64,000 nucleotides of DNA from Escherichia coli. Its GTDB lineage: Bacteria > Pseudomonadota > Gammaproteobacteria > Enterobacterales > Enterobacteriaceae. The DNA is taken from NCBI RefSeq assembly GCF_013315695.1, contig NZ_CP054353.1. One strand, 5' to 3'. This document shows positions 13,745 to 58,430 of this stretch, piece by piece. The notes under the pieces are model-generated. The model made no database searches. It had not been told where the DNA came from and was given only the letters and a program-made list of their open reading frames with translations. The first letter of the stretch is position 1. Each line of letters opens with the position of its first letter. Position numbers and translations under genes: made by a program.

Positions 13745-13889
13745 ATACAGCGAACGCCATTGGTTTAGTTGGATATTTACTGTGCCGGACAAAAACGGTT
13801 TGCGGGGAAATCTTAGTTAAGTAGAATAACTGCGGGTGCTTGAGGCTATCTGTCTCAGGCATGAACACCAAAAGGCAGATAGAGAAAAG

Positions 13890-13953
13890 CCCCAGTTAAC
13901 ATTACGCGTCCTGCAAGACGCTTAACATTAATCTGAGGCCATATCTATGCGAC
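13890..13953 (-). ncRNA. Putative Sok-like antisense RNA of the hok locus (extent approximate)
   Basis: Reverse-strand promoter TTGACC, 18 nt, TAATCT (-35 at 13984-13989, -10 at 13960-13965) pointing across the mok-like start; 3' end not defined. Confidence 0.3.
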
Positions 13954-14006
13954 ACATAGAGATTAGCCTCTTACGGACCGAAAGGTCAAGGAGAAGCAGG
14001 CTATGA
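13947..14006 (+). CDS. mok-like leader ORF (19 codons) translationally coupled to hok
   Basis: ATG CGA CAC ... CTA TGA; its stop overlaps the hok ATG (cTATGAag). Confidence 0.35.
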   Translation: MRHIEISLLRTERSRRSRL

Positions 14007-16031: not shown

Positions 16032-16406
16032 ATGCTCATAGATTTGGTTTTACCTTACCCGCCGACGGTGAACACTTACTGGCGACGCCGTGGCAGCACA
16101 TATTTTATCTCGGAGGAGGGAAAGCGTTATCGCCGGGCTGTGGCGCTTATTGTTCGCCAGCAGCGGCTGAAATTAAGCCTGTCCGGAAGGCTGGCGATAA
16201 AGGTGATTGCAGAGCCACCGGATAAGCGTCGTCGCGACCTGGACAATATCCTGAAAGCACCGCTGGATGCGCTGACGCATGCGGGAGTGTTAATGGACGA
16301 TGAGCAGTTTGATGAAATCAATATCGTTCGTGGTCAGCCAGTATCTGGTGGACGTCTGGGGGTGAAGATTTACCCCATAATGCATGAAGAGCAGGTCAAA
16401 AAATGA
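16032..16406 (+). CDS. rusA: Holliday-junction resolvase RusA
   Basis: MLIDLVLPYPPTVNTYWRRRG...DKRRRDLDNILKAPLDALTHAGVLMDDEQ. Confidence 0.85.
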   Translation: MLIDLVLPYPPTVNTYWRRRGSTYFISEEGKRYRRAVALIVRQQRLKLSLSGRLAIKVIAEPPDKRRRDLDNILKAPLDALTHAGVLMDDEQFDEINIVRGQPVSGGRLGVKIYPIMHEEQVKK

Positions 16407-17224
16407 AACTGGAAGATTTACCGAAATACTACTCCCCAAAATCCCCTGGCCTGACCGATGCATCGGCCTCAACGTCAAAAGATGCGCTGAGTATCACTGA
16501 TGTGATGGCCGCGCAGGGCATGACACAGAATCGGGCTGAGATGGGTTTTTCTGCGTTCCTGGGGAAAATGGGCATCAGTATGAATGACAGGGTGCGGGCA
16601 ACAGAATTACTGGCAGATTATGCACTCAGTCGGTGCGATCGTGTGGCGGCGTTGAGAAAACTTCCGGCAGAAATAAAACCGGTAGTGATGCGCATTATGG
16701 CTTCGTACGCTTTTGAGGATTATGCCCGCAGCGCAGCGAGTAAAAAGCAGTGCCCTTGTTGCTATGGGGAAAAATTTATTGAAAGCATAGTTTTTACAAA
16801 CAAGGTCCAGTATCCGGATGGTAAGCCGCCGGTATGGGCAAAGTGTACGAAAGGTGTGTATCCGTCTTACTGGGAAGAATGGAAAAAAGTCAGGGAGGTG
16901 GTAAAAGTTGCCTGTCCGGAGTGTGGCGGAAAGGGTGAGGTTTCCACCGCCTGTAAGGATTGCCGTGGGCGTGGTGTCGCCATTCACCGTGAAGAGTCGG
17001 TAAAACGTGGTATGCCTGTTATCAGAGACTGCCAGCGTTGTGGTGGTCGTGGCTATGAAAGACTACCATCAACGGAGGCATTTAATGCTATATGCGAGGT
17101 GACAAACCAGATAACACGCGCGTCATGGGAAAAAACAGTTAAGAAATTCTATGATGCGCTGGTGACCCGGTTTGATATTGAAGAAGCATGGGCTGAGCGG
17201 CAGTTAAAAAAGGTAACTAGGTAA
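16403..17224 (+). CDS. Late-gene antiterminator Q (QuuQ-like, zinc-finger type)
   Basis: MKLEDLPKYYSPKSPGLTD...; multiple CxxC pairs (CPCCYG, CPECGG, CKDCRG, CQRCGG); overlaps rusA stop. Confidence 0.75.
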   Translation: MKLEDLPKYYSPKSPGLTDASASTSKDALSITDVMAAQGMTQNRAEMGFSAFLGKMGISMNDRVRATELLADYALSRCDRVAALRKLPAEIKPVVMRIMASYAFEDYARSAASKKQCPCCYGEKFIESIVFTNKVQYPDGKPPVWAKCTKGVYPSYWEEWKKVREVVKVACPECGGKGEVSTACKDCRGRGVAIHREESVKRGMPVIRDCQRCGGRGYERLPSTEAFNAICEVTNQITRASWEKTVKKFYDALVTRFDIEEAWAERQLKKVTR

Positions 17225-17229
17225 CAAGG

Positions 17230-17257
17230 TTGATTTTTCCGGAATCTGTGGTAAATT
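17230..17257 (+). promoter_or_regulatory. Late promoter pR'-like
   Basis: TTGATT, 16 nt, TAAATT immediately downstream of Q, same -10 hexamer as lambda pR'. Confidence 0.6.
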
Positions 17258-17306
17258 CGTCATAACGATGGGCCTTTTATGCCTGACGTTAGAAGAGTTT
17301 CTACAA

Positions 17307-17331
17307 CCCGCCGCCGAGCGGGTTTTTTATT
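17307..17331 (+). terminator. tR'-like intrinsic terminator
   Basis: cccgccgccgagcggg hairpin followed by ttttttatt about 45 nt downstream of the putative late start. Confidence 0.65.
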
Positions 17332-17367
17332 GCGGAATTAATTACGGACCGTTATTATTCTGCTCCC

Positions 17368-17443
17368 GGCCCTTTAGCTCAGTGGTGAGAGCGAGCGACT
17401 CATAATCGCCAGGTCGCTGGTTCAAATCCAGCAAGGGCCACCA
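17368..17443 (+). tRNA. ileZ: Prophage tRNA with CAU anticodon, Ile2 (lysidine) type, ileZ-like
   Basis: GGCCCTTTAGCTCAGTGGTGAGAGCGAGCGACTCATAATCGCCAGGTCGCTGGTTCAAATCCAGCAAGGGCCACCA; close to host ileX in sequence. Confidence 0.85.
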
Positions 17444-17543
17444 TCACAAACCGCCATTAGCTTATCAGGAAGAGCAGACGACGCGATAACAGGGTTGTTG
17501 GTGCGGGGGCGGGTCCCCGATGGCGGTCCATTATCGGTATTCA

Positions 17544-17617
17544 GCGTTGTTAGCTCAGCCGGACAGAGCAATTGCCTTCTAAGCAATCGGTCACTGGTTC
17601 GAATCCAGTACAGCGCG
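17544..17617 (+). tRNA. Prophage tRNA-Arg (UCU), argO/argN-like
   Basis: Acceptor GCGTTGT/ACAGCGC, D-stem GCTC/GAGC, anticodon stem ATTGC/GCAAT with loop CTTCTAA, T-arm ACTGGTTCGAATCCAGT; no encoded CCA. Confidence 0.8.
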
Positions 17618-17730
17618 CTATATTCATTCTTCCAGATTCCTTCCGGCAGAGCCTTATACTGAAATATACCTGGCTCAGGATATTGTTGAAAATATTATAT
17701 GTTTGTCAAAAATAAAAGTTCTGTTAAGTA

Positions 17731-18084
17731 TTGATTGAGTGTTTGTTATACGGTCTAATGGTTTTTTCAGCATTAAATATTTATCATTCATATGGTGTGG
17801 GTAGAGTGAATATTGATGAGGCGTCGGGGTGTTTCATCCTTAGGCAGCGTATTGATATAGTCAATGCAGCACGAGCAAAGGCCTTCAGCCGTTTGACAGT
17901 TTTGTTCTGTACTCCTGATCGTCTTTCGGGAAGAGACGTTATTATTCTGAATAGTGATGCTATTCAGAGGGTTTGCGATGAGTTCATGGTTGCTAATTCA
18001 GAATTATTTGCTCTTGTTCAGGAGTACAACAGAATAGCCAGGACCTGTGGTATGGATGAACTTCGGATTACTCATCTGGGGTAG
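17731..18084 (+). CDS. Hypothetical ORF in an AT-rich moron region (start uncertain)
   Basis: Open frame with TTG/ATG starts and no clear RBS. Confidence 0.3.
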   Translation: MIECLLYGLMVFSALNIYHSYGVGRVNIDEASGCFILRQRIDIVNAARAKAFSRLTVLFCTPDRLSGRDVIILNSDAIQRVCDEFMVANSELFALVQEYNRIARTCGMDELRITHLG

Positions 18085-18531
18085 ATACATATCTGGATTA
18101 TCACTTGTTACGGTAAAAAGTGATTGCTTACTGTTTTTGTGAGTGGCATTGCAGCAGCCGGATAATGTCAGTGCTGGCTGACGGTGTGCTGGTGGCGGGT
18201 GTGGTGGTTGTTGCTTTCCCGTTGCTGAAAAAGAAAACGCCAGACTGTTAGCCGGGTATCAGTTAGCGGGAGAAATTTTTAAATACTTCACAATTCAGGC
18301 GGTTGACTGTTGTCTGGTTTGCGGGGAGTTTGTTAAAAGAAACTGGCATGGTGAATCCCCCTGTGCGGAGGGGCAATCAGCGAGTAGGTATATGGGATAA
18401 TCGCGGATTCAGGTGCTGGTACTGAATTCACCGGGAGGCACCCGGCACCATGCAATGGCACATAGCGCCACTCTCCAGCCCCTCTCCGGAGGGGCTGTTT
18501 ATATTGATTTTGTCAGATGTGAGTAAACTCC

Positions 18532-18867
18532 TTATGGACTTTGTTGTTTTAGTCCATAAGGACATATTTGCAGAGTGCAACGGTTATTAAAGCATTCATT
18601 CAATACGTTATCTGTATTTGTAGGACATTCCTGGCTGTTTTTGATTAAATTCCAGAATGTTTTATTGAATGGTGCTACGTTGTAAATGGTTACAGGTAGC
18701 ACTTTGTTATTGAGCATGATACCTGTGTGAGTCAGTGTAAATATACTTTCAGGAGGTAAGAAAGCATCCGATTGATACCAGATTATTAATTTTATTTTAC
18801 TCCATATGACTGAAAAAGATATTCCGCATGATGGCTGGATAACTGTATCAATCACAATCCACTTCAT
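18532..18867 (-). CDS. Hypothetical Cys-containing protein, 111 aa, reverse-strand moron
   Basis: Strong RBS AAGGAAA 5 nt before ATG; GC about 35 percent; opposite strand to the late operon. Confidence 0.5.
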
Positions 18868-57801: not shown

Positions 57802-58430
57802 TATGTATTCCCTTGTGATTATAATCTTCATGAATATATCAATAAGTGCTGTTATCCAAAAAAAGCACATTTGGATACTATTCTATGAAGTTCATTTTAT
57901 TTTAAAGATTACATGTAACAAATGTATTTAAAAGATTTCAAAATGTTTCTAATCTATTTAATATAATTCATAGTTATGAATTCTGAATATAAATATTCAC
58001 GAATATTATGGATATATATCAATATGTTATGAGTTGATCGAAAAGATAGGGAGTATCAATGATTGTTGCGCTAAACGGCTGGTGTGATCTCGCGCACATT
58101 AATGAAGGCATAAAAAAAAGCCGGCATCATGCCGGCCCAAAAAAATATAAACAAGACGATAAAAGGCTAATAACGGAGGCATGATGACACAGAAAAATAA
58201 AAAGGTATAATTGTAATCAGTACCAATATATTGATTGAATGAATTAATAAAGCCGAAATCAAAGATAAATAACATCGTTCAAATCGATTTTTCCTGTATT
58301 CACCGCCGTTGCGCAAAATTTATCTATTTGTTCAAAAAATGATTGAGTCTTGACTGGCTCATCCAATGTGGAAAAATGTGACTTTTATCACATAATAGTT
58401 CTAAGTCTGAATTTTCCGGGTTATCTCAAA

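Follow-up and report, generated by a model that had tools for sequence, protein, structure and literature searches.

We analysed a 64,000-nucleotide stretch of Escherichia coli DNA (assembly GCF_013315695.1, contig NZ_CP054353.1), hereafter called the window, and focus on the late control region of a prophage and the tRNA genes that follow it. The window contains a lambda-like prophage integrated at the serU tRNA gene, with 30-base att repeats at positions 1806 and 49256. In the annotation of a 99.7%-identical genome, the prophage genes run in the order integrase, exonuclease, repressor/cro, replication genes, RusA, Q, tRNAs, accessory genes, holin/lysozyme, terminase, head and tail, and the set of lysis, head and tail genes downstream of the Q/tRNA region is complete. 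The locus under study lies at the junction of the early-right operon with the late operon and holds, in this order, a gene for a Q antiterminator, a pR'-like promoter, a tR' terminator, a tRNA-Ile2 gene with a CAU anticodon, a decayed tRNA gene, and a tRNA-Arg(UCU) gene. It is very probably the late control region of this prophage, with a mobile tRNA cassette placed directly after the terminator. An earlier note on this DNA had named all of these elements other than the decayed gene, and was right on each main point; two of its secondary claims are corrected below. Each sequence element is identified by its homology and its conservation in relatives, and we describe the elements in turn before considering how they might work together.

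The Q gene (16403–17224, plus strand) encodes a protein of 273 residues that Pfam, BLASTP and PHROG comparisons all place in the lambda-Q family. The protein belongs to PF03589 (Antiterm; E = 2.2e-54), shares 31% identity with lambda Q (E = 4e-41), and matches the PHROG family 'anti-termination protein Q-like' (E = 1e-112). PF03589 is the Q-lambda family, for which a late cassette consisting of the Q gene, PR', a sigma-dependent pause element, a terminator and the late genes has been described (PMC9388147). The reading frame is uninterrupted, and two unrelated strains have the very same protein in their annotation (WP_000762915.1). Unlike lambda Q, the protein carries an insertion of about 66 residues in the zinc-ribbon arm, with extra CxxC motifs. 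CxxCxGxG-like motifs inside the insertion score 28.4 bits with the DnaJ_CXXCXGXG model, slightly under its cut-off of 32.7 bits.

A putative pR' late promoter (17230–17257, plus strand) was assigned by sequence reading, homology and conservation in relatives. Its −35 hexamer, TTGATT (17230–17235), begins 5 nt past the Q stop codon (17224) and is followed by a 16-nt spacer (17236–17251) that includes an extended −10 TG (17249–17250), and then by the −10 hexamer TAAATT (17252–17257); the motifs and positions given for this promoter in the earlier note are correct. Each hexamer matches the consensus at 4/6 positions, and with 8/12 overall the promoter is missing from the list of our consensus scan, for which the threshold was 9/12. 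The assignment is made because of homology to lambda, and the consensus score is not its support. The layout TAAATT-N6-AACGATGGG is identical to that of lambda pR', with 17 of 21 bases matching in an ungapped comparison anchored on the −10, and this lambda-derived pattern occurs once in the 64-kb window against 0.01 occurrences expected by chance. As in lambda, the candidate promoter lies just past the Q stop and an intrinsic terminator stands before the late genes. Unlike lambda, the promoter spacer is of unrelated sequence, has a length of 16 rather than 17 nt, and contains the extended −10 TG.

By homology to lambda, transcription is predicted to start at about 17264, where a putative sigma70-dependent pause element, AACGAT(GGG), also begins (17264–17272, plus strand). 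The AACGAT hexamer lies 6 nt downstream of the −10, with the same spacing as in lambda, where it acts as a −10-like element whose re-binding by sigma70 gives the +16/+17 pause at which Q loads. Near-identical relatives in IMG/VR (L016, L031, L046 and L072 among them) carry the variants AACAAT, AATGAT, AATAAT and GATGAT. The A at position 2 and the T at position 6, which are the bases most critical for sigma region 2, are invariant among these variants, and the set could serve as it stands as a small mutational series for work on how sigma-dependent pausing operates in this Q subfamily. In two further relatives (L027 and L080), the Q C-terminus and the discriminator have diverged, yet the −35, spacer, −10 and pause element are kept. 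The spacer sequence, TTTCCGGAATCTGTGG, is a candidate Q-binding element that is kept in relatives with diverged Q C-termini and is unrelated to the lambda element. Overall, these comparisons favour a lambda-type late promoter directly after Q, whose activity is predicted.

The tR' intrinsic terminator (17305–17328, plus strand) was located by a terminator scan and by folding, and consists of the hairpin AACCCGC-CGCCGA-GCGGGTT and a T run. In the terminator scan, the stem-loop (17305–17324) has seven pairs, five of them G-C, and a 6-nt loop. The first two residues of the six-T run (17323–17328) close the stem, and TTTTATTGCG follows it. The hairpin begins 48 nt after the −10, in good agreement with the distance of about 45 nt proposed in the earlier note. 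Among relatives, the stem is constant and the loop occurs in three versions (CGCCGA, CGCTGA and CATTGA). An RNA made without antitermination would run from about 17264 to about 17328, a length of about 65 nt, and the terminator hairpin lies at the 3' end in the fold of a predicted 70-nt transcript. In this respect the locus differs from lambda, in which the corresponding 6S RNA is 194 nt long. Read-through of tR' is predicted to depend on Q. By its Q family, promoter position, pause element and terminator, the switch belongs with the lambda-type late cassettes. Two Rfam matches to the short transcript, Trp_leader (25.3 bits) and isrK (15.6 bits), lie far under their gathering scores and were set aside as terminator-driven chance, and a 45-residue open reading frame (ORF) that overlaps tR' and ileZ (17268–17405) was taken as spurious.

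Two intact tRNA genes follow on the plus strand, and ARAGORN and the Rfam tRNA model each find both of them. The first (17368–17443) is an ileZ-type tRNA-Ile2 gene with a CAU anticodon and an encoded CCA. It scores 72.5 bits with the Rfam model, is called by ARAGORN (cat), and carries the PGAP label tRNA-Ile in a genome with 100% identity to the window over 17200–17700. Its sequence is identical across the tRNA to ileZ of the Stx2a phage WGPS8 and agrees with K-12 ileX at 68 of 76 positions, against just 54/78 and 49/78 for Met tRNA sequences. The pairs C4-G69 and C5-G68, which are determinants for TilS, are present and are common to ileX. These findings support the earlier assignment of the CAU tRNA to the Ile2 type, with a body unlike those of Met tRNAs, and lysidine is predicted at C34. 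The second gene (17544–17617) is of the argO type, a tRNA-Arg gene with a UCU anticodon that scores 68 bits with the Rfam model, is called by ARAGORN (tct), and is labelled tRNA-Arg by PGAP.

Both genes share anticodons and cloverleaves with chromosomal E. coli genes, ileZ with ileX/ileY (tRNA-Ile2) and argO with argU (tRNA-Arg UCU). They differ from these counterparts in being carried on a mobile cassette. In ileZ, an A27-C43 mismatch tops the anticodon stem, unlike in ileX/ileY, and argO is only about 72% identical to argU. The 3' end of argO reads GCGCG-CTA and encodes no CCA (17615–17620), unlike the Stx-phage copies, which read CCA; the CTA end is common to 11 IMG/VR loci and is also found in other E. 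coli genomes. To our knowledge, all E. coli chromosomal tRNA genes encode the 3' CCA. Maturation of an argO transcript with the CTA end would rely on the host CCA-adding enzyme, as it does for some T4 tRNAs. A compensatory double change in the argO T-stem, from CACTGG..CCAGT to CAGTGG..CCACT, is present in four loci (L044, L080, L083 and L100) and is consistent with selection on a functional tRNA.

Between the two tRNA genes lies a segment of about 100 bp that the earlier note had taken for a spacer unable to fold as a tRNA, a statement that our analysis does not confirm. Although the tRNA detectors all pass over the segment, its minimum-free-energy fold is a cloverleaf, and it aligns with argN, the middle gene of the tRNA cassettes of Stx phages. 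The homologous element spans 80 nt (17451–17530, plus strand) and was delimited by the argN alignment together with the cloverleaf fold. It matches Stx-phage argN column for column, and the acceptor stem of 7–8 bp, the D arm, the T stem, the discriminator and the T-CCA end are the same. The predicted fold has four arms with an 8-bp acceptor stem (ACCGCCAU/AUGGCGGU), and its energy is unexceptional (z = −1.37).

The two regions in which the middle element departs from argN are the anticodon arm and the T-loop. In place of the argN anticodon arm stands GACGACGCGATAACAGGGTTGTT; the arm, GACGAC-GCGATAACAGG-GTTGTT, has a 6-bp stem with an 11-nt loop, where argN has a 5-bp stem with the loop CTTCGAA. 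The element is not a tRNA-Arg(UCG), and its anticodon loop is read either as 11 nt or as 7 nt with an A at position 33 in place of U33. The T-loop is the 6-nt GCGGGT, without TTC, where argN has TTCGAGT. The Rfam tRNA model gives no match to the element at E ≤ 10, ARAGORN makes no call on it with default or relaxed thresholds, and PGAP annotates nothing at this position in the genomes examined. We set aside a match to YrlA that spans ileZ and the middle element (17.6–19.9 bits; threshold 69 bits) as reflecting a general resemblance to tRNAs.

A scan of IMG/VR with the shared acceptor stem gave 123 matches in the returned loci, which we sorted into four groups by the content of the middle slot. 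Canonical argN (UCG) accounts for about 84 of the 123, and the odd anticodon arm is found with an intact T-loop in 8 and with a damaged T-loop, as in the window, in about 29; the remaining 2 have other anticodon arms. The damaged T-loops occur in at least five versions (GCGGGT, GGCGGGT, GGCTGGT, CCGGGT and a shortened stem), which include changes of length. Copies of ileZ with deletions are present in the same set (L043 and L064). The form with the odd arm and an intact TTCGAGT T-loop is named 'tRNA-OTHER' in the annotation of ETEC4073. Under very relaxed ARAGORN settings this form can be read as a tRNA with a four-base anticodon (AACA) or with an intron, readings that we rejected, since the anticodon stems are mismatched and two near-identical copies disagree.

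The heterogeneous T-loop damage, with its length changes, looks like decay, and the middle element is best explained as an argN pseudogene. The presence of an argN homologue in the gap means that the locus should be described as a three-slot cassette with one dead slot, and not as a two-tRNA variant with a neutral spacer. We also observed that the argN scaffold, with an identical acceptor stem, bears other anticodon arms in L014 (Lys(UUU) according to ARAGORN) and in L052 (GCU). With UCG, UUU-like, GCU-like and odd arms all found on one scaffold, the middle slot may be a site at which anticodon arms are swapped.

A candidate promoter for the cassette itself lies between tR' and ileZ (17330–17358, plus strand), recognised by its conservation. 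It consists of TTGCGG (17330–17335), 17 nt and TATTAT (17353–17358), ends 10 nt upstream of ileZ, and would start transcription at about 17365. When 32 distinct 70-nt upstream sequences from over 100 loci are compared, conservation is highest in the TTG and TTATTAT columns. The arrangement TTGnnn-17-TATTAT is kept despite unrelated sequence between the hexamers, as in TTGATT-ATTGATTTTCATCTGAT-TATTAT and in TTGCAA-17-TATTAT. Upstream of the cassette −35, at least five unrelated contexts were found, among them two tR'-type hairpins and the 3' end of a methylase gene. In the window, homology to Stx phages starts at ATTGC, immediately past the T run of tR' and at the cassette −35. A 'pS tRNA promoter' upstream of tRNA-Ile has been named in an O157 Stx2 phage (PMC2858043). 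The cassette is therefore likely to have its own predicted sigma70 promoter. Given a conserved sigma70-type promoter between tR' and ileZ and the published mention of pS, expression of the tRNAs is probably also independent of Q, and the view in the earlier note of the tRNAs as purely Q-dependent late products needs to be corrected accordingly.

The cassette as a whole (approximately 17328–17640) is about 300 bp long, with tight homology breakpoints on both sides. It is 88.5% identical over 308 nt to the ileZ-argN-argO genes of many Stx2 phages, with the same order and a shared upstream promoter block. The kinship to tRNAs of EHEC-type phages suggested in the earlier note is borne out, as both intact genes are homologous to the ileZ and argO genes found upstream of stx in Stx phages. 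A megablast search matched 289 phage records, mostly of Stx2 phages, with window positions 17328–17635 aligned at about 88% identity. Of the 5426 complete E. coli genomes searched, 3070 give a match, and 824 contain 80% or more of 17200–17700; the 5426 genomes together carry roughly 7600 copies of the cassette. The argO sequence alone is present in 2839 of the 5426, with up to 11 copies per genome. We regard the cassette as a mobile module, with a likely promoter of its own, that has been placed right after tR'.

Comparison with Stx2 phages that carry ileZ-argN-argO (of the 933W/Sakai type, for example AP012540) shows the same gene order, orientation and promoter-proximal sequence. The AP012540 record, which is that of phage WGPS8, names ileZ, argN and argO directly upstream of stx2A; besides the identical ileZ, argO is near-identical between the two. 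In both settings the cassette lies downstream of the late regulatory region and upstream of a nanS-p esterase gene and lysis genes. Where these phages have a gene for tRNA-Arg(UCG) in the middle slot, the window has an 80-nt derivative of it, in which the anticodon arm is aberrant and the T-loop damaged. No stx gene is present here; a phrog_2873 ORF, a DUF3927 gene, a small RNA (sRNA) of the STnc100 type and iraM are found instead. The Q gene upstream of the cassette in the AP012540 phage is, at 435 nt, much shorter than that in the window.

A parallel to the layout in the window is phage P27 (Stx2e; GenBank AJ298298), in which just ileZ and argO are annotated, 101 nt apart, and the gap holds the same odd anticodon arm. 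A two-tRNA layout is therefore not new. In contrast to the window, the middle element of P27, like its 'tRNA-OTHER' equivalent in ETEC4073, keeps the canonical TTCGAGT T-loop. The P27 cassette also follows a DNA methylase gene rather than tR', and stx2e lies downstream of it.

In the scheme that we favour, transcription from pR' would begin at about 17264, and polymerase still bearing sigma70 would pause near +16 as sigma re-binds the −10-like AACGAT. Without Q, termination at tR' would release the RNA of about 65 nt. Once Q has accumulated, it would bind its site in the promoter spacer and load onto the paused polymerase, and the polymerase so modified would no longer stop at tR' and would go on through the tRNA cassette and some 4 kb of accessory genes to transcribe those for lysis and morphogenesis. 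Expression of the tRNAs would be basal in the lysogen and would rise to a high level upon induction, with host RNases processing the precursor. TilS would convert C34 of the ileZ product to lysidine so that the tRNA reads AUA, the argO tRNA-Arg(UCU) would read AGA and AGG, and together they would add decoding capacity for rare codons that are commoner in prophage than in host genes. The start sites, the pause, the dependence on Q, the activity of both promoters, the maturation of the tRNAs and any benefit from them are all deduced from sequence in this scheme.

The idea of a codon supply was examined by comparing codon use in late (7474 codons), early (3229 codons) and flanking host (3088 codons) genes, with long non-overlapping ORFs as gene proxies; the ORF calls behind this comparison are crude, and the host sample is limited to these 3088 codons. 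AGA and AGG together occur at 7.4 per 1000 codons in late genes, 13.0 in early genes and 2.3 in host genes (late vs host odds 3.3, p = 0.001; early vs host odds 5.8, p = 4e-7). AUA occurs at 5.9, 8.1 and 4.5 per 1000, respectively (early vs host odds 1.8, p = 0.08). The comparison proposed in the earlier note thus comes out as expected for AGA/AGG, which are about threefold up in late genes, and not for AUA. The codon-supply argument is supported for Arg and weak for Ile. We also noted that CGG is about threefold enriched in the late genes (19113–48303), although argN(UCG), its reader, is dead in this prophage; CGG occurs at 13.9 per 1000 codons in late, 13.3 in early and 4.5 in host genes (late vs host odds 3.1, p = 9e-6).

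Several observations count against a late switch that drives useful tRNAs, beginning with the crudeness of the codon comparison. AUA in late genes is not significantly enriched over flanking host genes (odds 1.3, p = 0.47), so the argument from codon supply holds for Arg only. The absence of an encoded CCA may lower the output of argO. Neither pR' nor the cassette promoter reaches the threshold of the consensus scan. The zinc-ribbon arm of lambda Q touches the Q-binding element in the DNA and sigma region 4, and with an insertion of 66 residues in that arm the details of Q loading may differ from those in lambda. Finally, in AVS0196, a close relative, the integrase gene of the prophage carries a frameshift, so some copies of the prophage may be defective and the switch may rarely fire.

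The alternative with the most in its favour treats the cassette as an autonomous, constitutive 'moron' of use to the lysogen, which might, for instance, gain help in translating acquired genes with many AGA/AGG codons. Its place after tR' would then be an accident of mosaicism, to which Q adds little. This account draws on the conserved promoter of the cassette, on the homology breakpoints that flank it tightly, and on the variety of the modules that precede it, at least five in number; in P27 and ETEC4073 the preceding module is a methyltransferase gene, and no Q gene is adjacent. It also agrees with the abundance of the cassette, which over half of complete E. coli genomes contain, often in several copies, and with the greater richness of early than of late prophage genes in AGA/AGG. 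Against it, in every locus examined the cassette is oriented with late transcription, with the regulatory region on one side of it and the lysis or stx genes on the other; with this orientation and position, the cassette must also be transcribed by the Q-modified polymerase. The terminator scan of the window finds no terminator after argO, so the cassette is not a closed transcription unit here. We consider an autonomous cassette of this kind possible, though somewhat improbable as the full explanation, and it is not mutually exclusive with the late switch.

A second alternative, that the pR'-tR' module is a fossil in a cryptic prophage, with Q or its loading site inactive and just the tRNA genes functional, would fit the frameshifted integrase of AVS0196, which is the closest complete genome, the weak pR' hexamers, and the insertion of iraM and an sRNA gene in the late operon. 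We judge it unlikely. The Q reading frame is intact and recurs unchanged in two unrelated strains, and the lysis, head and tail genes downstream form a complete set. The promoter, pause element and terminator are conserved, with variation of a functionally tolerated kind, and the same module is 98.6% identical in the mEp460 phage genome record.

It is very unlikely that the middle element is a functional, non-decoding tRNA-like RNA (a decoy for an anticodon nuclease, a defence system or a colicin, or a processing or regulatory RNA) excised together with ileZ and argO by RNase P and 3' nucleases: the odd anticodon arm is nearly invariant (35 IMG/VR loci, 22 distinct cassettes), all three arm changes in one diverged copy (L099) keep pairing, the acceptor stem, discriminator, CCA and, despite the T-loop changes, the T-stem are intact, the same scaffold carries other arms elsewhere (such as the UUU type in L014), and about 30% of sampled cassettes, cultured phage P27 included, have the odd-arm form, but the 22 cassettes are very closely related, which makes the invariance weakly informative on selection, the odd-arm class shows a pattern of decay in its at least five T-loop forms, the fold energy is unremarkable, no Rfam match is significant (YrlA reaches 17.6 bits), and the deleted ileZ copies show that decay is common in these cassettes. 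If true, such an RNA would be a modestly interesting phage tRNA mimic.

With the late control region followed by a mobile cassette as the preferred reading, nothing at the locus is of a new kind, and public records already annotate most of it. The Q/pR'/tR' switch can be found in textbooks, and annotations of the ileZ/argO cassette go back to the first genomes of Stx phages. In the literature collection searched, no paper of relevance came up for ileZ, argN or argO by name. Two corrections, the dead argN and the cassette's own candidate promoter, will help annotation, though a specialist would hardly be surprised by them. What lies between the two tRNAs should be annotated as a decayed third tRNA gene and not as a spacer. 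Furthermore, the cassette is self-contained, measures about 300 bp and brings a conserved candidate promoter of its own, so silence of its tRNAs in lysogens should not be taken for granted.

The accessory genes beyond the cassette include several further features. At the position that stx occupies in Stx phages lies an ORF of 108 residues (17758–18084, plus strand) that matches PHROG family 2873, of unknown function (E = 3.8e-70), and is unannotated in the two RefSeq genomes examined. An Rfam match to the STnc100 sRNA (18317–18506, plus strand; 132 bits against a gathering score of 47 bits) lies within the late operon, between the DUF3927 gene on one side and iraM on the other. The iraM-like gene, for an anti-adapter that stabilises RpoS, is at 18532–18867 on the minus strand, antisense inside the late transcription unit, so a Q-modified polymerase would cross it. 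Elsewhere in the window, three other Rfam matches exceed their gathering scores: a sok antitoxin RNA beside hokD (13834–14005, plus strand), DicF in the early-left region of the prophage (6262–6313, minus strand), and rseX in the host flank (58113–58203, minus strand).

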